NCBI GenBank assembly: GCA_040773245.1 | Contig: JAXGWO010000014.1 | Span: 707-64,706, forward strand | Origin: PVC group bacterium | GTDB taxonomy: Bacteria > Auribacterota > Erginobacteria > Erginobacterales > Erginobacteraceae | DNA: 64,000 nucleotides | Direction of reading: 5' to 3' | Notes under the pieces: generated by a model | The model's input: the letters and a program-made list of their open reading frames with translations, nothing else | Database searches by the model: none | What the model was told of the DNA's origin: nothing | Made by a program: the position numbers and the translations under genes | In this document: positions 2,933 through 46,622 of the stretch, piece after piece | How positions within the stretch are numbered: the stretch's first letter is position 1 | How the letters are laid out: each line of letters starts with the position of its first letter

Positions 2933-3568
2933 TTAGACCCCGCGATCCCGCCCGGGCCAGATGACCTTCTGGAGCTGGAGCTGGAGCCGGACCTCGAGAC
3001 CGTCCCCGAGGATCCATCCGGCCAGTTCGGCCGGGTCGAGCTGACCGGCCGCCGGCGAGAAGAGCACCGCCGGGCTGGCGGGGATCCGCTCCCCGGCCAC
3101 CGCCTTCGCCCAGAGGTAATCCTCCCGGCCGCCGATTACGAACTTCACCTCGTCGCGCGGGGTGAGATGAGCCAGGTTCTCCCAGCGCATCTTCCCCGTC
3201 TCCCCGCTCGAGGGGCACTTCAGGTCCATTATCCTCGCCGCCCGGGGGTCGAGGACGGAGATGTCCAGCGAGCCGTTGGTCTCGATCAGGACTTCCAGCT
3301 TCCTATCGAGCAGGGCGGAGACCAGGGCCGGGGTCTCCTCCTGGAGGAGCGGCTCACCACCCGTGACCTCGACCAGCCGGCAACGGTAAGCCTCCACCCG
3401 TTCGAGCACCGCTTCCCGGGATAACAATTCCCCTCCTTCCCGGGCGTAGAGGGTATCGCAATAGGAGCAGTTCAGGTTGCAGCCGGCCAGCCGGACGAAG
3501 ACGCAGGGCAGCCCCGCGCCAGTGGACTCCCCCTGGATGCTGTGAAAGATCTCGCTGACCTTCAGCAT
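2933..3568 (-). CDS. queE: 7-carboxy-7-deazaguanine synthase (radical SAM)
   Basis: SEIFHSIQGE...FVRLAGCNLNCSYCDT, TGGEPLLQ, ETNG, MDLKCPSS, LQLQK motifs. Confidence 0.95.
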   Translation of the reverse strand: MLKVSEIFHSIQGESTGAGLPCVFVRLAGCNLNCSYCDTLYAREGGELLSREAVLERVEAYRCRLVEVTGGEPLLQEETPALVSALLDRKLEVLIETNGSLDISVLDPRAARIMDLKCPSSGETGKMRWENLAHLTPRDEVKFVIGGREDYLWAKAVAGERIPASPAVLFSPAAGQLDPAELAGWILGDGLEVRLQLQLQKVIWPGRDRGV

Positions 3569-3572
3569 CCCC

Positions 3573-3941
3573 TCACTCCGAATAGGCCGCGCCACTGTCC
3601 GAAGTCTCCCGGACCTCGACCCGGCAGACCCGGACCCGCCCGTCGTCGAGCCGGCGGCCCAGTTCCCGGAATAAGTACCGGGCCAGGTTCTCAGCGGTGG
3701 GGTTTGTTCCCCGGAATGCCTCCAACCGGTTGAGGTCCCGGTGGTCGAGTCCGGCGCAGATCTCCTCCAGGTGCGATTTCAATTCCCGGAAGTCGATCCC
3801 GAAACCCCGCTCGTCGAGCTCATCGCAGGAGACCGAGACCTTGATCTTCCAGTTGTGCCCGTGAACCCGGGAACAGGGACCCGGGTACCCGTCCAGGCAG
3901 TGGGCGGAGGAGATACCGGCTTCGATGAATGCTTCGTACAC
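3573..3941 (-). CDS. queD: 6-carboxy-5,6,7,8-tetrahydropterin synthase
   Basis: AH...CSRVHGHNWK, DFRELK, LDHRDLN, NPTAENLA motifs; GTG start; directly upstream of queE. Confidence 0.92.
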   Translation of the reverse strand: MYEAFIEAGISSAHCLDGYPGPCSRVHGHNWKIKVSVSCDELDERGFGIDFRELKSHLEEICAGLDHRDLNRLEAFRGTNPTAENLARYLFRELGRRLDDGRVRVCRVEVRETSDSGAAYSE

Positions 3942-4082
3942 TGAAAAATTATTCTGCGAAATATTTTAGTGTTTGAGTTCTGTTCTCGAAATCAACGGTC
4001 TTGATTATACATCAGGAATCTCCGAAACCGGGTGAACCAAACTTGTGGAGCATTGCGGAACGATAGTTATCCGATCGGACCT

Positions 4083-4895: not shown

Positions 4896-6019
<1,124 letters not shown>

Positions 6020-33889: not shown

Positions 33890-33960
33890 ATCAAAGTTGG
33901 GCGGAGGAACTCCCTTAACCCGGAATAGATAAGGTGATACAATCGCCCCGGACAACGCCG

Positions 33961-35325
33961 ATGAAAGCCCTCCTGGTCAACCCCTGGATCTGCGACTTCG
34001 CGGCCTACGACCTATGGCTGAGGCCCTTCGGGCTGCTCCGGGTCGGGGCGGTTTTGCGGAAGTGGGGCTGGTCGGTGGACCTCCTCGACTGCCTCGATCG
34101 GTTCGACCCCGAGCTTCCTGCTTATGCCTCCCGGAAGCTCCCCCGGAGCAACACCTTCGGCCGGGGGAAGTTCTACCAGGTCCCGGCGGAGAAGCCGGAG
34201 GCGGTCGCCTCCGTGGACCGCCCCTACTTCCGCTACGGGCTTCCCCGGGAACTGGTCATCAAGCGGCTGGCGGAGAAGGAGAAGCCGGACCTGGTCCTGG
34301 CCGGGACGACAATGACCTACTGGTATCCCGGGTACTTCCAGACCCGGGAACTCTTAAAAGAGGCCTTCCCCGGCGTCCCGGTTATCCTGGGAGGGCTTTA
34401 CCCCCAGCTCTGCCCGGACCACGCCCGGGATCAATCGAAAGCCGACGCGATCGCGGTCCGGGGCGGATGGGAGGAGCTGGCCGATCTGCTCGCCGGGCGG
34501 GGATTCCCCCGGCCCGGTCAACCCGGGACGGAGATTCTCCCGGCCTACGACCTGCTGAGGAACCGTTCGGCCCTGGCAGTCCGGACGGGACTGGGCTGCC
34601 CCCACTCCTGTTCCTACTGCGCGGCCGCGCTCCTGGAGCCGGAACTCCGGCGGCGGGAACCGCCGGCCGTGGCGACGGAGATTATTGGCTACCGGGAACG
34701 CTATGGGACAACCGACATCGCCTTCTACGACAACGCCCTCCTCTATGACTCCCCCCGCCACCTCGATCGTATCCTTGCTCTCCTGATCCGGGATGGCGGG
34801 GGCTGGAGATTCCATACGCCCAACGGTCTCCACGCCCGCTTCCTGACTCGCCGGACCGCGGAGCTGATGAAGGAGGCCGGGTTTGTCCAGCCCCGGCTCA
34901 GTTTGGAATCGGCAGGCGAGGATCACCAGAAGAGAACCGGCGGGAAGGTGGCCAACCGGGATTTGATCCGGGCGCTGGAGCACCTGGCAGAAGCCGGCTA
35001 CCGCCGGGGGGATGTCATCGTCTACCTGATGATCGGGCTTCCCGGGCAGATCCCGGAAGAGGCGAAGCGGGATATCCGGTTCGTCCACTCCCTGGGGGCC
35101 GCCGTCTCCCTGGCCGCCTTCTCCCCCATCCCGGGGACCCCCGACTACCTTGCCCTGGTCAAGAAAGGGGTGATCCCGGGAGACCTCGATCCGCTCTGGC
35201 AGAACAACACCATCTTCTCCTCCCGGCAGGGGGTATTCACGCTGGAGGTGATCCGCGGGCTGCGGGGATTGGCCGGGGATCTGAACCGGGAGTTGCGGGG
35301 CACCATAACCGATGGTAAGCTATGA
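33961..35325 (+). CDS. B12-binding-domain radical SAM protein
   Basis: NPWICDFAAYDLW, MTYWYPG, LGGLYP, GCPHSCSYC, FYDNALL, TPNGLH. Confidence 0.88.
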   Translation: MKALLVNPWICDFAAYDLWLRPFGLLRVGAVLRKWGWSVDLLDCLDRFDPELPAYASRKLPRSNTFGRGKFYQVPAEKPEAVASVDRPYFRYGLPRELVIKRLAEKEKPDLVLAGTTMTYWYPGYFQTRELLKEAFPGVPVILGGLYPQLCPDHARDQSKADAIAVRGGWEELADLLAGRGFPRPGQPGTEILPAYDLLRNRSALAVRTGLGCPHSCSYCAAALLEPELRRREPPAVATEIIGYRERYGTTDIAFYDNALLYDSPRHLDRILALLIRDGGGWRFHTPNGLHARFLTRRTAELMKEAGFVQPRLSLESAGEDHQKRTGGKVANRDLIRALEHLAEAGYRRGDVIVYLMIGLPGQIPEEAKRDIRFVHSLGAAVSLAAFSPIPGTPDYLALVKKGVIPGDLDPLWQNNTIFSSRQGVFTLEVIRGLRGLAGDLNRELRGTITDGKL

Positions 35326-35380
35326 CTTAGCAAGACCTAACAGGCAAAGGACATAAAGGGCTTAAAGGACCTAAAGGATA
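35322..35380. repeat. 9-mer tandem array (GGACnTAAA-type)
   Basis: ...ggcaaa ggacataaa gggcttaaa ggacctaaa ggata, directly after the radical SAM stop. Confidence 0.7.
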
Positions 35381-35405
35381 CCGGGGCGAACAGGACTTTG
35401 CGGGG

Positions 35406-35606
35406 ATGAACAGGGGAAGAATAATCCGGTCGATATTGATAGCGGGAGCACTCTTTCTGGCGGCGGGGTGCGGGGAGGCGCCGCGGACGGGTCCGGAGGC
35501 GGAACTCCGGGCCACGCCCGGCACCGCGGAAGAGACGTTGAGCCGTTACCGGGAGCGAGGGATCGAACCTCGGAAAGCCAGGTTCTCCCGGGAGTGGGAG
35601 GAGTAA
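35406..35606 (+). CDS. Small lipoprotein (66 aa)
   Basis: MNRGRIIRSILIAGALFLAAG-C lipobox; ends PRKARFSREWEE. Confidence 0.65.
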   Translation: MNRGRIIRSILIAGALFLAAGCGEAPRTGPEAELRATPGTAEETLSRYRERGIEPRKARFSREWEE

Positions 35607-35608
35607 AC

Positions 35609-36589
35609 GTGAAGACCGAGCGGAAAGTCCAGTGCGGCCTCTGCCCCCGGCGCTGCGTCCTGGCGCCGGGGCAGCGGGGGGACTGCCGGGCCCGGGAGAA
35701 CCTGAACGGCGAACTGGTCACCCTGGTTTACGGCAACCCCTGCGCGGTCCACATCGACCCGGTGGAGAAGAAGCCGCTCTCCCACGTCCTGCCCGGGACC
35801 AGGACCTTCTCGATCGCCACCGCCGGCTGCAACCTCCACTGCCGGTTCTGCCAGAACTGGCAGATCTCCCAGCGTCCGCCGGAAGAGACCGACAACTACA
35901 GCCTCCCCCCGGCGGCGGTGGTGGAAGAGGCCGTCCGCCACGACTGCCCCTCGATCTCCTACACCTACACCGATCCGATGGTCTTCTACGAGTACACCTA
36001 CGATACCTCGGTCCTGGCCCGGCAACGCGGCCTGAAGAACATCCTGGTCACCGCCGGTTACATCAACGAGCAGCCGCTGCGGGAACTCTGCCCGGTGGTC
36101 GACGCGGCCAACGTCGACCTGAAGGGCGACGAGGAGTACTACCGGAAGGTGGTCGGGGGAACCCTGGGCCCGGTGCTGAGGACCCTGGAGGTGATGCGCG
36201 AGATGGGGGTCTGGCTGGAGATCACCAACCTGATCGTCCCCACCCTCAACGACCGGCCGGACCGGATCGAGTGGCTGGCCGGCTGGGTTTACGACCACCT
36301 CGGCCAGGATACGCCGCTCTACTTCTCCCGATTCCAGCCCCTTTACCAGCTCCGCAACCTCCCCCCCACCCCGGTGGAGACCCTGCGGAGGGCGAGGGAG
36401 ATCGCCCTCGGGAAAGGGCTGCGCTACGTCTATACCGGGAACATCCCCGGCGACCCGGGGGAGAATACCATCTGCCCCAACTGTAAAAAGACGGTAATCG
36501 GAAGGACCGGATACCTGGTCCGGGAGAACCACCTGAAAGACGAGAAGTGCGGATCCTGCGGCCAGGCGATCGCAGGTTTGTGGAAGTGA
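35609..36589 (+). CDS. AmmeMemoRadiSam-system radical SAM enzyme
   Basis: CGLCPRRC, DPVEKKPL, GCNLHCRFCQNWQIS, YTYTDP, NVDLKG, EITNLIVP, YVYTGN, CPNC; GTG 35609 after GGAGGAG. Confidence 0.9.
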   Translation: MKTERKVQCGLCPRRCVLAPGQRGDCRARENLNGELVTLVYGNPCAVHIDPVEKKPLSHVLPGTRTFSIATAGCNLHCRFCQNWQISQRPPEETDNYSLPPAAVVEEAVRHDCPSISYTYTDPMVFYEYTYDTSVLARQRGLKNILVTAGYINEQPLRELCPVVDAANVDLKGDEEYYRKVVGGTLGPVLRTLEVMREMGVWLEITNLIVPTLNDRPDRIEWLAGWVYDHLGQDTPLYFSRFQPLYQLRNLPPTPVETLRRAREIALGKGLRYVYTGNIPGDPGENTICPNCKKTVIGRTGYLVRENHLKDEKCGSCGQAIAGLWK

Positions 36590-36599
36590 GCAACCAAGG

Positions 36600-36764
36600 A
36601 TGAAAACTGAAGAGAAGATCAGCCGGAGGCAGTTCCTCAAGCGGGGGCTCGGCTGGGGGCTGGTGGCGGGGCTTCTGCCCTTCTGGTCCCGGGCGCAGAG
36701 GAAGCCGAACGAGGATAATGTCCGGCCGGCGAAGGCGCGGCACTGGCGGGAACTGGCCGGTTAA
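36600..36764 (+). CDS. Small Tat-signal peptide (54 aa)
   Basis: Below the track cut-off. MKTEEKISRRQFLKRGLGWGLVAGLLPFWSRAQRKPNEDNVRPAKARHWRELAG*; S-R-R-x-F-L-K consensus; AAGG before ATG. Confidence 0.75.
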   Translation: MKTEEKISRRQFLKRGLGWGLVAGLLPFWSRAQRKPNEDNVRPAKARHWRELAG

Positions 36765-37411
36765 GTCCGGGCTGGAAGGAGGCTTTCCACCTCCGACGAC
36801 CGGACCAGCCGGATCCCATTCTCCCTGAACACCCGCTTCGTCTCGGCCGCCGACTCCTCGGTCACCCCCCGGCAGGCGTCCTCGATCACGAAGATTTCCA
36901 AGGTGAACTCGAGGGCGTCGAGGGCGCTGTAGCGGACGCAGAAGTCGAACGCCAGCCCGGCGAGGAAGACCCTTCGTACCCCCCGTTCCATCAGGTACCC
37001 CTTCAGCCCCGAGGGATTCCGGTGGTGGTTGTCGTAAAAGACCGAGTAGGAATCCACCACCGGGTCCAGCCCCTTCCGGATGATCGCCTGGAAGTATTCG
37101 GTCCTGATCCCGGGGGCGAACTCGGCCCCTCTCGTCCCCTGGACGCAGTGGACCGGCCAGAGGATCTGCTCCTTCCCGCCCAGGGTCCCCAGATCGTAGG
37201 GGGCAGCCCCGGGGTGCCGGGTATGGAAACTCCCGTGCTCCGCCGGATGCCAGTCCTGGGAGGCGACCACGACGGGGAAGAGCGGCATCAGCCGGTTGAT
37301 GACCGGGATCACCTCCCGAGCCCCCGGGACCGGAAGCTCCGACTCCTCGATGAACCCGTTCTGGATATCCACCACCAGCAGCGCGGCCCGGTTCTCATTC
37401 TCCCGCTTCAC
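36761..37411 (-). CDS. pncA: Nicotinamidase/pyrazinamidase
   Basis: VVDIQNGF, SQDWHP, LWPVHCVQG, RKG...DSYSVF, GLAFDFCV. Confidence 0.92.
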   Translation of the reverse strand: MKRENENRAALLVVDIQNGFIEESELPVPGAREVIPVINRLMPLFPVVVASQDWHPAEHGSFHTRHPGAAPYDLGTLGGKEQILWPVHCVQGTRGAEFAPGIRTEYFQAIIRKGLDPVVDSYSVFYDNHHRNPSGLKGYLMERGVRRVFLAGLAFDFCVRYSALDALEFTLEIFVIEDACRGVTEESAAETKRVFRENGIRLVRSSEVESLLPART

Positions 37412-37475
37412 AGTGATGACAACATATCACAGCTTAGACCTTGAAGACAAGCCGCCGGTGACTGATCCCGAAGGG

Positions 37476-39818
37476 CTATCGCCTTGGGCGGTAGCCGAGG
37501 ATCACGACCAGGGAGGCGAGGTTGACCAGGGAGACGGCCCAGCAGGTGGCGTTCACCCCCAGGATAGGGAGGATCAGGGCGCTGACCGCGACCGCCCCCA
37601 GGCAGGCCCCGAAGAGATCGGCCCCGTAGGTCAATCCGGCCACCAATCCCACCTTCTTCCTCTCTTTCAGGTACATTCTCCCCGCCAGCGGGAGCTGGAA
37701 CCCCCCGACAAACCCGGCCGTCAGGGGAAGCAGCGGGAAGACCAGCCGCTCGCCGAGGGTGAAGACCGCCTCCATCCCCCGGGCCGCGGCCAGGAAGGAG
37801 AAGACCGCCGGGAGAAGCAGCGGGTAGAGGCAGATGGCGATCTGGGTCACCAGTAGAGCCCGATAGTCATTCCGCAGCCGCGGGAAGAGGGCGGTGACCG
37901 CGCCGGCGCCCAGGGCCAGGCCGACCATAAACAGGGTCAGGAGCAGCCCCAGCTTGTAGTAGACGTACCCGTAGAAGATCTGAAAGGCGAGGAGCACCAC
38001 CACCTGGAAGACGATCTCCGAGAACCCCGAGGTGAAGACCGGCCAGAGCACCCACCCGCCCCGCGAACGGGAGACCCGGCGGCGGAAGACGGGGAAGGCA
38101 ATCAGGGCCAGGACCGCCGGAAGACCGAACCACCACCAGCGGATGACCAGCGCCGCCTGGAGGAAACGGATAAACCAACCCCCGGTCTCGCCGGCGAAGT
38201 AGCTCGACCAGAAGACCACGTTAAAGAAGTAGGAGATCGGGTGAAAGTCGCGGTTGATCCGGGCCCGGGGGGCGGTCTCGATCATCCCCCGCAGGTACTC
38301 GATCCGCTCCCGGCTCATCCGGTCGGCCAGGTAGTACCCCCGGACATAACGAAGGTCAAGCGAGCGCTCCCCGACCCGCTCTTCGATAATCCGGTAATCG
38401 TCGGTCAGGTACCCGGGAGAAGCCGCGGCGATGAAGTGGTTGGTCCCGCCGGGGACGATCACCACCGCCGGGAAGATCCCGTCCAGGGTCCGGTAGAGGG
38501 AACCGAGAAAGTTGCGGAGTTCCCCGCTGATGTAATTGGGAGACGAGGTGACCCCGAAGCCGAGCACCCCGCCTTCCCGAAGACGGGAACGGGCGAGGGC
38601 AAAGAACTCCCGGGTGTAGAACCGGTTGATCTGGGCGGTCAGCGGGTCGGGGAGGTTGAGGAGGATCAGGTCGTATTCATTTCCCGAACGCTCCAGGTAG
38701 AGCCGGCCGTCGCCGTAAACGATCTCCACCCGGAGATCGGTCAGGAACCGCCGCTCGCCGGGGGGAAGAAACTCCCCGGCCAGCCGGATGATCGCCGGGT
38801 CGAGTTCCAGGTAGGTGACCTCCTCCACGGAGGGATGGCGGAGGATCTCCCCCAGCCCCCCTCCGGCCCCGCCGCCGATCAGGAGGACCCGGCGAGGTTC
38901 GGGGTGCTGGAGAAGGGCGAAGTGCACCGACTCCTCGGCCGTGCTCTCGTCGGGGTAGGTGAAGACCAGCAGCCCGTTCTCGAAGACGCTGAACTGGTTC
39001 TCCCGGGCGGTGACCGCCAGGTTGCCGTAGATGCTGTTTTCGATCCTCTCCAGTTTAAAACCCCGCCACTGCCACCGGCGGGAGAGACGGTCCAGGGTAT
39101 GGATTTGCCCGGTGAGGAGGGCGGCCAGGGCGAAGACCGCCGCCGGCGGCCAGACCACCTTGAAGAAGCGGGAGCGGCGAGGGGATGGACCGGCCAGGAG
39201 CAGCGCCCCGGAGGCCGCCAGGTTCAAAAAACCCATCAGCGTCAGCATCGGCATCGAGTCGAGAATCCGGATCAGGAGGAGGCTGGTCAGGAGCCCACCC
39301 GCCGTCGAACCGAGGGCTTCAACGATGTAGACCAGGCCCAACCCCCGGGCCGGCCGCAGGGAGGGGTCCGCCGCCTTCCCGGCGGAGATCCGGTCGTAGC
39401 TGCGGCAGCCAAGGGCAAAGAGGAACCCGTTGAGCAGGCAGGTCAGGGAGAGGACCGAGAAGGAGACCAGGAAGATCGAGCCGTAGCCGGTGATCTGTCC
39501 GGGGGCGAGGCCGAGCAGCAACTTGGCCGAGCGGATCGCCGGCAGGGTCAGGACCAGGACAAAGGCCAGCAAGGTCTGGGCGACCGCCAGAACCAGGGCC
39601 GGGGAACGGAATCGGTCGGAGATCCTCCCCAGGCCGAGGCTCCCCAGCCCGGTCCAGAAGAGCCAGCAGCCCAGGATCACCCCCAGGGAAAGCTCGTTAC
39701 CGTAGAAGAGGACCAGCAGTTCCCTCAGGAAGACGATCTGGGCGGAGAAGGCCGAGAACCCGGCCAGGAAGACCGCGAGGAAGACGGGGATGACTCGGTT
39801 GCGAGGGGGAGGGCTCAC
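37476..39818 (-). CDS. Membrane protein: TM domain - spermidine-synthase-like SAM domain - TM domain (fused MFS/spermidine synthase type)
   Basis: SAQIVFLRELLVLFYGNELS, VLLIGGGAGG, ELDPAII, GDGRLYL, NRFYTREF, INRDFHPISY, YGADLFGA. Confidence 0.85.
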   Translation of the reverse strand: MSPPPRNRVIPVFLAVFLAGFSAFSAQIVFLRELLVLFYGNELSLGVILGCWLFWTGLGSLGLGRISDRFRSPALVLAVAQTLLAFVLVLTLPAIRSAKLLLGLAPGQITGYGSIFLVSFSVLSLTCLLNGFLFALGCRSYDRISAGKAADPSLRPARGLGLVYIVEALGSTAGGLLTSLLLIRILDSMPMLTLMGFLNLAASGALLLAGPSPRRSRFFKVVWPPAAVFALAALLTGQIHTLDRLSRRWQWRGFKLERIENSIYGNLAVTARENQFSVFENGLLVFTYPDESTAEESVHFALLQHPEPRRVLLIGGGAGGGLGEILRHPSVEEVTYLELDPAIIRLAGEFLPPGERRFLTDLRVEIVYGDGRLYLERSGNEYDLILLNLPDPLTAQINRFYTREFFALARSRLREGGVLGFGVTSSPNYISGELRNFLGSLYRTLDGIFPAVVIVPGGTNHFIAAASPGYLTDDYRIIEERVGERSLDLRYVRGYYLADRMSRERIEYLRGMIETAPRARINRDFHPISYFFNVVFWSSYFAGETGGWFIRFLQAALVIRWWWFGLPAVLALIAFPVFRRRVSRSRGGWVLWPVFTSGFSEIVFQVVVLLAFQIFYGYVYYKLGLLLTLFMVGLALGAGAVTALFPRLRNDYRALLVTQIAICLYPLLLPAVFSFLAAARGMEAVFTLGERLVFPLLPLTAGFVGGFQLPLAGRMYLKERKKVGLVAGLTYGADLFGACLGAVAVSALILPILGVNATCWAVSLVNLASLVVILGYRPRR

Positions 39819-44531: not shown

Positions 44532-46622
44532 ATGACCGGAATAAAAAAAATCGGATTTGGCGGAGCATTACAAACCGGTATTTTCCTCGGCCTGCTGGGC
44601 TCACTCTCCCTGGTTATGTTGGAGGCAGGATATTTTCTCCTCAGCGGGAAACGGCTTCTCTTCAGCAGTCCCGGGGAATACAGGCTTTTCCTCGTTTATC
44701 TGACCGGACTGCTCGTGTCTCTGGGGGCCATAATTGGGATTATGGAGGGAATTTTTTCCTGGCTGGTCTTCCGGCTTCCCTTTGGACGCCATCGCATCCG
44801 TCCGAATGCCCCGCTGATAGCGGCTACATATGTACTCGGCCTATACTGCTACGTTATTTTCCGCAATGCGGTCCTGACCAACCTCTACCACCCTACAGAG
44901 AGCCATCTTTATCGACAGATCTTCGTCTTCGCCTCTTTGGTCTGCCTTCTCACTTTTGTCCCCCTTTGCGCCCTGCAAAACCAGAGGCGCCGTTTAGCCC
45001 AAGGCTTAAAAATTGTGCGCGGGGGTTCCGCCACGCGACGGATCGGCCGGATCCTCGCCACGGGAATCTTCTTGATGGTTCTGTACTGGGCTGACGCTTC
45101 TTTCTTCCATCGTGCATTTCCTTACCTGCATAATATGATTTCGCTGGTGCTCTTCTGGCTGGGGCAATACTTCCTTCTTTGCCTCGTCGCCGAATTTTCC
45201 CCGCTTAATCCGCGTTTCCAACAGAAAGCTTTACTGCTCTTCGGCGCTCCGATCCTCATCGCCACCCTGACTTTCACTCTCTGCCGTTTTGGTGACAACC
45301 AAAAAGTGAAACGGATCGTTCTCCTGGAAACTCCGTTCCAGAGCAAAGCAATCCAGTGGATCCATCGCCTAGTAGACTTCGATCGCGACGGCTATTCACC
45401 AATCCTGGGGGGCGGGGACTGCAACGACCGCAACCCCGCCGTCAACCCGGGGGCTTACGACATCCCCGGGGACGAAATCGACCAGGATTGTTTTGGCGGT
45501 CCGAGAATGCCCCGATTCGGAAAGGAGGTTCTCCGCGTCGGGCCGGTCCCCGAAATCGCCAACGTCATATTTATCACCATCGACGCCGTCCGTTATGACC
45601 ACGTTGGCTGTTACGGCTACCAACGCCGGACCACGCCCAATCTCGACCACTTGGCTGCCGGGGCCGCCCGCTTTGTCGAGGCATACAGCCAATCGACAAA
45701 TACCATTTTCTCCTTTAATTCGGTGATGACTTCCCTGATCCCGCTGGAGGCGGAGAAACTGGATATTGTTCACACTCTTCCCGAGATACTGAAGCAGGCG
45801 GGCTGGACAACCACAGTCATCGCCCCGAGGATTCGATTCGAGGTCTACTATTTCCGCCACCTGTTTTACCGCGGATTCGACCATAAAGAATTTCCAGTGG
45901 TGCCTCCGCCGATCACCGATCAATCCACCACCCAGAAACTGACGGAAAAGGCGCTGGAATTTCTCCGCAGCGAGCACGAACGACCGTTTTTCCTCTGGCT
46001 GCATTACTACGATCCTCACGCTCCATACCTACCCAATCCGGAATCTCCAAATTGGGGGGAGGATGCGATCGATCTCTATGACGGTGAGATCCTCCGGGTC
46101 GATGCCGGTATAGGGAAGATTCTCGACTGTCTCCGGGAAACCGGCCTGTTCAATCGTTCTCTGATTGTGGTCTTTGCCGACCACGGAGAGGAATTCGGCG
46201 ATCACGGGGGGAGATCCCACGGCACCACTCTCTATCAAGAAGTCCTCCGGGTTCCGCTGATCGTTCGGATCCCGGGGGCCGAATCCAGAACGGTCGCAAT
46301 CCAGGCGAGCTTAATCGATCTTCCGCTCACCGTCCTCGACGCGATCGGCCTCCCCCTCCCCCGCCGGACGCAGGGGATAAGCCTTCTCCCCGCAATTCTC
46401 GGATTTGAAACCCGGGAGCGGGATGAGGGAATTTTCGCCGAGAATCTGCTGGCGAAAAAGCGAGCCATCCTTTACGGAGACTGGAAACTGATTTACGATT
46501 ACCGTCACGTCACCTTCGAGCTTTATAACCTGGCGGAAGATCCCGATGAAAAGAGGGAAATCTTTGACCGGGAACCGGCCCGGGCGGCCGACCTGATCCG
46601 CCGACTCGCCGCTTACTATTGA
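44532..46622 (+). CDS. Membrane-anchored sulfatase-like hydrolase/transferase with a MopE-type metal-binding motif
   Basis: N-terminal TM helices; DFDRDGY...GDCNDRNPAVNPGAYDIPGDEIDQDC; ITIDAVRYDH, FFLWLHYYDPH, YDGEI, ADHGEEF, HGTTLYQE; no CxPxR. Confidence 0.85.
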   Translation: MTGIKKIGFGGALQTGIFLGLLGSLSLVMLEAGYFLLSGKRLLFSSPGEYRLFLVYLTGLLVSLGAIIGIMEGIFSWLVFRLPFGRHRIRPNAPLIAATYVLGLYCYVIFRNAVLTNLYHPTESHLYRQIFVFASLVCLLTFVPLCALQNQRRRLAQGLKIVRGGSATRRIGRILATGIFLMVLYWADASFFHRAFPYLHNMISLVLFWLGQYFLLCLVAEFSPLNPRFQQKALLLFGAPILIATLTFTLCRFGDNQKVKRIVLLETPFQSKAIQWIHRLVDFDRDGYSPILGGGDCNDRNPAVNPGAYDIPGDEIDQDCFGGPRMPRFGKEVLRVGPVPEIANVIFITIDAVRYDHVGCYGYQRRTTPNLDHLAAGAARFVEAYSQSTNTIFSFNSVMTSLIPLEAEKLDIVHTLPEILKQAGWTTTVIAPRIRFEVYYFRHLFYRGFDHKEFPVVPPPITDQSTTQKLTEKALEFLRSEHERPFFLWLHYYDPHAPYLPNPESPNWGEDAIDLYDGEILRVDAGIGKILDCLRETGLFNRSLIVVFADHGEEFGDHGGRSHGTTLYQEVLRVPLIVRIPGAESRTVAIQASLIDLPLTVLDAIGLPLPRRTQGISLLPAILGFETRERDEGIFAENLLAKKRAILYGDWKLIYDYRHVTFELYNLAEDPDEKREIFDREPARAADLIRRLAAYY

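Follow-up and report, generated by a model that had tools for sequence, protein, structure and literature searches.

The AmmeMemoRadiSam system comprises a radical S-adenosylmethionine (SAM) enzyme (TIGR04337), a Memo-like B protein (TIGR04336) and an AMMECR1-like A protein (TIGR04335), and we know of no biochemical function established for it in any organism. Burroughs et al. (2019, J Biol Chem 294:10211) reportedly analysed its genomic contexts. Here we describe a member of the enzyme family encoded at 35406–36764 of a 64,000-nucleotide (64-kb) stretch of DNA from a PVC group bacterium, referred to below as the window. The enzyme gene is flanked by two small open reading frames (ORFs), pepU upstream and pepD downstream, each combining an N-terminal export signal or anchor with a short C-terminal tag. 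By score the enzyme is a clear member of its family, and related loci that share its short form encode a fusion of B and A. Unlike the system as described, however, it lacks positions 1–7 of the family profile, no A or B gene lies within the 64 kb, and the partners in related loci carry export signals.

The arrangement also resembles twin-arginine translocation (Tat) hitchhiking, where a cofactor-containing catalytic protein without a signal is encoded beside a partner bearing the sole twin-arginine signal, and where export as a pre-formed complex is the proposed logic. Examples are the gamma subunit of the Burkholderia flavin adenine dinucleotide-glucose dehydrogenase (PMC6719666), PaoABC (PMC4273604) and, as cited in PMC10924467, the [NiFe]-hydrogenase small subunit (Rodrigue et al. 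1999). These known escorts are folded subunits of ~17 kDa or larger, whereas pepD would leave ~20–25 residues past its signal, with one predicted beta-strand. Moreover, that strand is a cis element in sister enzymes, and the second partner, with the same strand on an anchor of the general secretory (Sec) type, has no counterpart among hitchhikers.

A third point of comparison is the NapH/NosR-like modules. FMN_bind/NapH-like proteins are ApbE-flavinylated extracytosolic electron conduits used modularly for various extracytosolic oxidoreductases (PMC8238504), and in many sister loci the upstream gene likewise encodes an extracytosolic FMN_bind domain, transmembrane helices and CX3CP iron-sulphur (Fe-S) motifs. 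In contrast to the described modules, those of the sister loci end in an extra transmembrane helix and the strand tag, or have a separate pepU behind them; we know of no report of a radical SAM client for such modules, and the window has only a bare anchor-plus-tag peptide. Finally, in chaperone-usher pili a fold that is missing a beta-strand is completed by a strand of another polypeptide (donor-strand complementation and exchange). The likeness is one of analogy only, in that a final donor could take the place of a first one (there the chaperone); the proteins are unrelated in sequence and fold, and an exchange between pepD and pepU is pure speculation.

From the sequences and structural models described below, we suggest that the locus probably encodes a split, exported AmmeMemoRadiSam enzyme, in which the first strand of the fold is supplied in trans, pepD acts as a Tat hitchhiker escort and the upstream protein acts as a membrane dock. 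This combines hitchhiker export with gene fission and has several unprecedented features; we found no description of it in the literature searched. The two peptides and the enzyme to which the initial annotation drew attention are all present in the window sequence, as three co-directional ORFs with the following elements.

35406–35606, plus strand: pepU, a lipoprotein-like ORF of 66 aa in which a linker joins the N-terminal signal or anchor to the strand tag at the C-terminus
35457–35471, plus strand: lipobox-like L-A-A-G-C ending the pepU hydrophobic region, by direct reading
35571–35603, plus strand: pepU tag RKARFSREWEE, which belongs to the family motif G(I/L)xPx(E/K)Ax-aromatic
35596–35603, plus strand: Shine-Dalgarno sequence of the enzyme, GGGAGGAG, within the final pepU codons (translational coupling)
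35609–36589, plus strand: short-form AmmeMemoRadiSam radical SAM enzyme, 326 aa, without signal and without first strand
35633–35686, plus strand: N-terminal cysteine motif C9-x2-C12-x3-C16...C26, residues invariant in two enzyme alignments
35828–35851, plus strand: radical SAM cluster motif C74-x3-C78-x2-C81 (CNLHCRFC), invariant alignment columns
36600–36764, plus strand: pepD, 54 aa, in which a short linker connects the Tat signal to a strand tag with LAG at its end
36621–36641, plus strand: twin-arginine motif S-R-R-Q-F-L-K (TIGR01409, 16.9 bits, cutoff 16.7)
36729–36761, plus strand: pepD tag AKARHWRELAG, with A-x-aromatic-aromatic at a fixed distance from the C-terminus

The enzyme starts at the GTG at 35609, two bases past the pepU stop codon, and pepD starts eleven bases 3' of the enzyme stop. 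The enzyme scores 369.3 bits on TIGR04337 (cutoff 220), with a match that covers profile positions 8–333 only, and its N-terminus reads MKTERKVQCGLCPRRC. It has the CX3CX2C cluster motif, and its core is like that of pyruvate formate-lyase activating enzyme (PFL-AE), the best structural match in Foldseek (3cb8_A, E 3.9e-14, TMt 0.81). Among solved structures a sequence search likewise gives only PFL-AE (E 8e-4) and no member of the family. The N-terminal A-x-Y-Y strand at profile positions 1–7, expected in the same polypeptide, is found on the flanking ORFs instead.

We sorted the enzyme forms among the 120 best homologues and 80 genome loci. Short forms are ~325 aa long and start 3–9 residues ahead of V-x-C-x-L-C-P, and every one of the window enzyme's nearest relatives is of this kind. 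Long forms (~370–410 aa) open with a Tat-like, Sec-like or lipoprotein signal and a linker, followed by '(K/R)EAxYYxxL' and then V-x-C-x-L-C-P, much as the initial annotation had described for the family. Two medium forms have the strand and no signal. In the long form P0037 the TIGR04337 match runs from position 1, which falls on the Ala of 'ARYYE', so the model itself begins with this strand. The abrupt start that had been remarked on in the window enzyme is a property of its clade and no local truncation: the closest homologues, and the ~325-aa enzymes of this clade as a whole, start likewise. Within the long forms, enzymes with a Sec-like signal or transmembrane anchor and no twin-arginine motif, in loci without a Tat peptide, occur at L020, L054, L014, L021, L026, L046, L051, L068 and L087. 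At L027 a medium enzyme (3001–3981; strand, no in-frame signal) lies beside a signal-bearing Memo-AMMECR1 protein (451–1950); the N-terminus of this enzyme could be mis-assembled or frameshifted, or the locus could be another split arrangement.

For the distribution of the small ORFs we compared 84 loci, 33 of them short-form (29 from the genome scan, three orthologue loci and the window) and 51 long or medium. Both small ORFs are kept in the close orthologues L001, L003 and L005–L007, whose enzymes are 66–84% identical to that of the window, and they are conserved beside enzymes of 53–90% identity in Omnitrophota, Aegiribacteria, Planctomycetota, Elusimicrobiota, Myxococcales and others. Both elements were also found in the 29 genome-scan short-form loci, which come from many phyla and encode enzymes 53–62% identical. 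Here a strict C-terminal regular expression missed about half of the peptides and was replaced by three-frame reading of the flanks together with hidden Markov models (HMMs). A separate Tat peptide follows the enzyme in 24 of the 31 short-form loci with downstream sequence (two end right after the enzyme) and in 0 of the 51 long or medium ones. The pepD HMM scores >50 bits in 23 of these loci and 29 bits in one more, immediately 3' of the enzyme; further variant Tat peptides are present at L010, L052, L055, L080, L081 and L043. An upstream ORF with the tail 'G(I/L)xPxEAxYW...' is found in 28 of 33 short-form loci and again in 0 of 51, and L040 and L060, both kept out of HMM training, have this tail too. 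The Fisher p-values for the contrasts, 8e-15 and 1.6e-17, overstate independence because the short forms are almost monophyletic, and the main weight lies in the fact that a deep clade spanning many phyla has kept both ORFs.

The initial annotation had proposed a search for small ORFs beside AmmeMemoRadiSam enzymes across genomes, and this search recovered both kinds next to short forms only. Every strong match to the stand-alone Tat peptide or the upstream tail in the 84 loci adjoins a short-form enzyme, and in long-form loci the pepD HMM matches only the N-terminal extension of the enzyme ORF itself, at 17–24 bits. Judged by sequence, the tag of pepD and pepU is homologous to the cis strand of the long forms. 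As a control, the tag expression plus a hydrophobic run was found in 8 of 1668 small ORFs (0.5%) around long-form loci, none of them enzyme-adjacent or Tat-like; the arrangement of tag and signal is beyond chance. Reverse look-ups starting from the peptides P0149 and P0131 reach the same cassette: a NapH-like FMN_bind/Fer4_5 protein (with the tail, or followed by an 85-aa pepU), a 325–326-aa radical SAM gene, pepD and a convergent spermidine-synthase-like membrane protein.

The pepD sequence is MKTEEKISRRQFLKRGLGWGLVAGLLPFWSRAQRKPNEDNVRPAKARHWRELAG, followed by the stop codon. Its signal fits S/T-R-R-x-F-L-K with a moderately hydrophobic region behind it, SRRQFLK being followed by GLGWGLVAGLLPFW. 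In the window S-R-A precedes a Q, but a consistent AxA cleavage site is absent across the family; the signal may stay on as an anchor. The downstream ORFs of close orthologues end in '...ARHWRELAG', '...EARHYRHLAG' and '...RARHFRQLAG'. A pepD profile searched against 1.84 billion cluster representatives (50% clustering) matched 244 proteins at E <=1e-3 and 59 at <=1e-10, the top 150 matches all being 46–92 aa long and aligned end to end. In 169 collected members, RR or RK stands within the Tat motif in 155, and all 169 have A-x-aromatic-aromatic at a fixed C-terminal distance (12 residues for 150 of them, 9 for the subgroup to which the window belongs) and a C-terminal Gly, within an LAG end in 138. 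Where members have database names, these are 'hypothetical protein' or 'twin-arginine translocation signal domain-containing protein'. Neither pepD nor pepU matches a family in Pfam, NCBIfam or PADLOC, and PADLOC gave nothing relevant. pepD is thus an unnamed, unannotated small-protein family of at least 244 clusters. Variant downstream Tat peptides lie at L055 3963–4130, L080 3897–4148 and L081 3936–4199 (Victivallales, Planctomycetota and one other lineage). Their tail is '(E/A)AR..YPGP(V/L)..L' and not A-x-Y-Y...LAG, no upstream tail ORF was detected at these loci, and they may be a second escort type.

The pepU sequence, MNRGRIIRSILIAGALFLAAGC...RKARFSREWEE and stop, has a positively charged N-terminus, a hydrophobic stretch and a linker. 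Taking the lipobox as [LVI][ASTVI][GAS]C after an n- and an h-region, the L-A-A-G-C of the window, like the AAAC, PAGC or AVGC of orthologues, is a loose fit to the classical form, and counterparts in other lineages have a plain transmembrane anchor with no Cys. The tag motif is common to pepU and the 'RGLIRPREARYYE' of long-form enzymes. Orthologous ORFs are present at L001, L003 and L005, and upstream ORFs of close orthologues end in '...GIEPRRAQFAREVEE', '...GIRPQKALFSRKIEE' and '...TGKARYWKPIE'.

Between the window and L001, pepD has a dN/dS of 0.31, with 15/7/20 differences at the three codon positions, and is under purifying selection; the value for the enzyme is 0.20. Over the last 26 codons of pepU, synonymous sites are saturated (pS 0.96) and pN is 0.20, so the protein is conserved. 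At L001, the closest NCBI relative, a repeat-rich insert of ~830 nt parts the enzyme from pepD, and pepD is still intact. This insert (4982–5811) contains several GC-rich palindromic units (…CACCCCGTTGGGGTG… / …GGTCCCCGGGGCG…) and then an AT-rich stretch, and looks like repeats of the repetitive extragenic palindrome or miniature inverted-repeat transposable element (REP/MITE) type.

These comparisons bear on whether the small ORFs are functional at all. They might be non-functional remnants of degraded long-form paralogues, or pepU and the enzyme might be a single gene broken by a frameshift or an assembly error, an alternative that the initial annotation had raised. pepD does resemble the first 54 residues of a long form, for which tandem duplication followed by deletion is a plausible origin, and pepU ends only 2 nt ahead of the enzyme start. 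However, the junction at 35585–35611 is the same and free of indels in four independent metagenome assemblies (anaerobic digesters and wastewater). The frame relation between upstream ORF and enzyme also varies among orthologues (in frame with a stop between them, overlapping as ATGA, or 33 nt apart), which excludes a conserved frameshift, and with it a frameshifted single gene, programmed frameshifting or readthrough. Decay, in turn, is effectively refuted by intact ORFs across phyla, by purifying selection and by the enzyme's own strong Shine-Dalgarno sequence and start codon. We consider this whole class of explanations extremely improbable. Two small differences were seen in the assemblies: in assembly X6 a single nucleotide is deleted at 35402, four bases ahead of the pepU ATG, and all four assemblies have T for G at 35652, inside the enzyme.

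We then consider what the tag does in the fold. Contacts in the predicted structures were read from DSSP secondary-structure strings only. In an AlphaFold model of a cis fusion (window pepD joined to the window enzyme, with long and short forms in the multiple sequence alignment) the mean predicted local distance difference test score (pLDDT) is 91. Tag residues 41–50 (VRPAKARHWR) also reach 91, compared with 45–60 for the signal region and 78 for the artificial loop. Beta bridges fall at 44–45 and 49–51, beside the V61-Q62-C63 strand. The model suggests that the tag strand is a structured element of the N-terminal domain, that the V7-Q8-C9 strand of the enzyme is its predicted hairpin partner, and that the split between the genes falls in the hairpin loop. 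In a trans-like fusion, pepD was placed after the enzyme C-terminus, with its own 40 residues of signal and linker as tether and with short-form enzymes only in the alignment. Here the core scores >90, residues 368–375 (PAKARHW) have a pLDDT of 50 or more, the rest of pepD is <50, and A44 and K45 are again in bridges; this low-confidence model (pLDDT ~50) is suggestive of the same pairing. Prepending pepD or pepU to the enzyme extends the TIGR04337 match only to position 6 or 3 and gains 1–2 bits; with a junction loop that exceeds that of the long forms by ~4 residues, this test is uninformative.

The placement of the tag in the cis model also matters for a different explanation, in which the peptides, and the tails of the FMN-binding and NapH-like proteins described below, are substrates of the enzyme and are modified at a residue within or near A-x-aromatic-aromatic before export, in the manner of ribosomally synthesised and post-translationally modified peptides (RiPPs) or as a protein modification. 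Small ORFs flanking a radical SAM gene are a classic precursor arrangement, the closest fold, PFL-AE, acts on a peptide loop, and in pepD the Ala and the C-terminal Gly are invariant and an aromatic pair is present. Peptide processing has, moreover, been linked to radical SAM domains that are relatives of the ones in Memo-AMMECR1 systems (PMC7159879). Yet the motif belongs to the enzyme's own N-terminus in the long and canonical forms, where a cis substrate would allow at most one turnover, and in the cis model the tag is built into the N-terminal domain as a structured strand. The aromatic positions are chemically variable (F-S, F-A and H-W in the window and its relatives), and the N-termini of the peptides are genuine export signals rather than leader peptides. 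A Pfam scan of the enzyme finds only Radical_SAM with a weak Fer4_12, and none of the SPASM, twitch or RRE domains by which a RiPP enzyme would be recognised. On balance a substrate role appears unlikely.

We return to the split, exported enzyme and to the proteins that carry its tag elsewhere. Going beyond the initial annotation, we find the same tail on FMN-binding and NapH/NosR-like proteins at other loci. At L013, L015, L022, L024, L028 and L088 it ends a 441–583-aa protein with an FMN_bind domain and two Fer4_5 (CX3CP) motifs, and a ferredoxin-type dicluster was identified in three of the five such FMN_bind/Fer4_5 tail proteins scanned with Pfam. At L023, L030, L033, L056 and L089 the FMN_bind/Fer4_5 protein stops past its Fe-S domain and a separate small ORF, consisting of a transmembrane helix plus the tail, comes next. 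At L025, L066, L077 and L034 the tail is joined directly to a small, signal-bearing FMN_bind protein. By hydropathy, the order in the L013 protein is a signal anchor, FMN_bind, three transmembrane helices, CX3CP, two transmembrane helices, CX3CP with the ferredoxin-type domain, a final transmembrane helix and the tail, which would place the tail and the FMN_bind domain on the same side of the membrane.

The partner proteins point the same way. A fusion of AmmeMemoSam_B and A (Memo and AMMECR1) is present in 31 of the 84 loci, 13 of them among the 33 short-form loci, and was confirmed at L022 (236 and 192 bits). Among the full-length members listed, nearly all have a Sec or lipoprotein signal, one exception being that of L059, whose enzyme is also without a signal. 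The only Tat signal in short-form operons sits on pepD. Since the tag is on extracytoplasmic carriers and the partners bear signals, the tag, and hence the protein that recognises it, would be outside the cytoplasm, and the whole system looks extracytoplasmic.

The same evidence bears on the possibility that the tags act in the cytoplasm, binding the enzyme for regulation or assembly (pepD inactivating it or recruiting it to the membrane's inner face), or that they bind a different partner, for example Memo-AMMECR1. With the enzyme kept in the cytoplasm, SAM supply and Fe-S assembly would no longer pose a problem, and the non-Tat signals of some long forms and the weak prediction of docking in trans also favour this reading. 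In opposition to this, the tail is joined directly to FMN_bind domains that lie outside the cytoplasm and comes after an odd last transmembrane helix in the NapH-like proteins, the Memo-AMMECR1 partners have Sec or lipoprotein signals, and the near-perfect, conserved S/T-RR-x-F-L-K motif of pepD would be superfluous for a mere anchor. We therefore regard a cytoplasmic role as improbable.

Supply of the strand in trans for export or anchoring, as first proposed from the window alone, has become the best-supported reading, given the conservation across phyla, purifying selection, the complementary distribution and the cis model. In canonical and long forms the polypeptide opens with the A-x-aromatic-aromatic beta-strand (positions 1–7), predicted to pair with the V-x-C strand ahead of the cysteine motif, with the export signal of long forms preceding it; the short-form gene starts after the strand, which is encoded instead on the two signal-bearing polypeptides. 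We infer with moderate confidence that the strand binds the enzyme in trans. pepD, contributing Tat signal and strand, would complement the missing strand of the enzyme in the cytoplasm, bind it there in its folded state with the clusters loaded, and carry it through the Tat translocon as a hitchhiker. pepU, with its anchor of Sec or lipoprotein type, would display the strand on the external face of the membrane and so tether the exported enzyme, and where the tail is carried by FMN-binding or NapH/NosR-like redox proteins these may feed electrons to it. Co-export by Tat, the docking role and the order of these events are what we infer from the arrangement of signals and tags. It is speculative, and drawn by analogy with donor-strand exchange, that the pepD strand is exchanged after export for that of the anchor; it is also speculative that SAM travels as a bound cofactor. 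A full hand-off, with pepD completing the fold and pulling the enzyme, its clusters and possibly SAM through Tat before its strand is swapped outside for that of the anchor or conduit, joining the enzyme to a membrane redox chain, is a tentative and rather doubtful extension. In that case the strand would be a portable tag for docking, shifted in the course of evolution among the enzyme, micro-proteins and redox carriers.

Several points weigh against a split, exported enzyme. A neighbour-joining tree shows the short forms as nearly monophyletic, with 2 changes between short and long, so the complementary distribution reflects one or two evolutionary events and not many. In about 11 long forms the signal is plainly Sec-like and lacks a twin-arginine motif, and a separate Tat peptide is absent too, which fits poorly with a folded Fe-S enzyme being exported. 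The cis model owes part of its confidence to the long-form sequences in its alignment, and the outcome of the trans-like model is weak. The window's own pepU tag is degenerate (ARFS, with F-S in place of Y-W), and two tag donors for one apparent groove are unexplained. No Memo, AMMECR1, NapH-like or FMN_bind gene lies within the 64-kb window (tblastn was used for the A and B genes), and the A and B genes may lie elsewhere in the genome. Three metatranscriptomes from one source study gave zero coverage of 33900–37500. A radical SAM enzyme outside the cytoplasm would, in addition, need SAM and low-potential electrons there, for which we found no precedent. In PubMed Central (PMC) and bioRxiv full text we found no precedent for Tat-exported or periplasmic radical SAM enzymes, for these peptides or for exported AmmeMemoRadiSam, though versions with a signal may have been noted by Burroughs et al. 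2019.

If the proposal is correct, a micro-protein family of at least 244 clusters would have the sole job of lending a Tat signal and one beta-strand, making it the most minimal hitchhiker escort known, and an element of a fold would serve as a docking tag that can be transferred, being found on the enzyme, on membrane anchors with nothing else attached and on flavinylated electron conduits. Radical SAM chemistry would then occur outside the cytoplasm in many anaerobic phyla, raising the questions of SAM and low-potential electron supply. It would also give a first concrete lead as to where in the cell, and with which partners, the Memo/AMMECR1/radical SAM system works; this system has human disease-linked homologues. 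The motifs would further provide rules, ready for use in HMMs, by which to annotate two classes of small genes now labelled only 'hypothetical' by gene callers or missed by them.

As for the surroundings of the locus, a scan of 35250–36900 gave no promoter or terminator sites. At their stops, pepD and a convergent nicotinamidase gene (36761–37411, minus strand) overlap by 4 nt, and beyond the latter lies the following gene.

37476–39818, minus strand: 780-aa polytopic membrane protein with a spermidine-synthase-like domain (MFS_SpdSyn, 67 bits, cutoff 40; PRK03612, 173 bits, below cutoff)

Homologues of this protein adjoin the enzyme in 41 of the 84 loci, short and long forms alike, and a SAM-related role for it is speculative. 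At ~700–800 aa, with a central fold that binds SAM or decarboxylated SAM (dcSAM), the spermidine-synthase-like protein is the most frequent neighbour of the enzyme, commoner than Memo-AMMECR1; its topology as judged from hydropathy is ambiguous. Directly upstream of pepU is a gene for a 463-aa B12-binding radical SAM protein (33934–35325, plus strand). Since it is a neighbour only in the closest relative (L001/L002) and not at L003 or L005, this is probably lineage-specific synteny and not part of the system. Further along, a sulfatase-domain protein with a MopE-type metal-binding motif (44532–46622, plus strand) is followed by a PMT_2 glycosyltransferase, both unrelated to the finding, and the remaining neighbours (ileS, chorismate synthase, shikimate dehydrogenase and ParB) are housekeeping genes.

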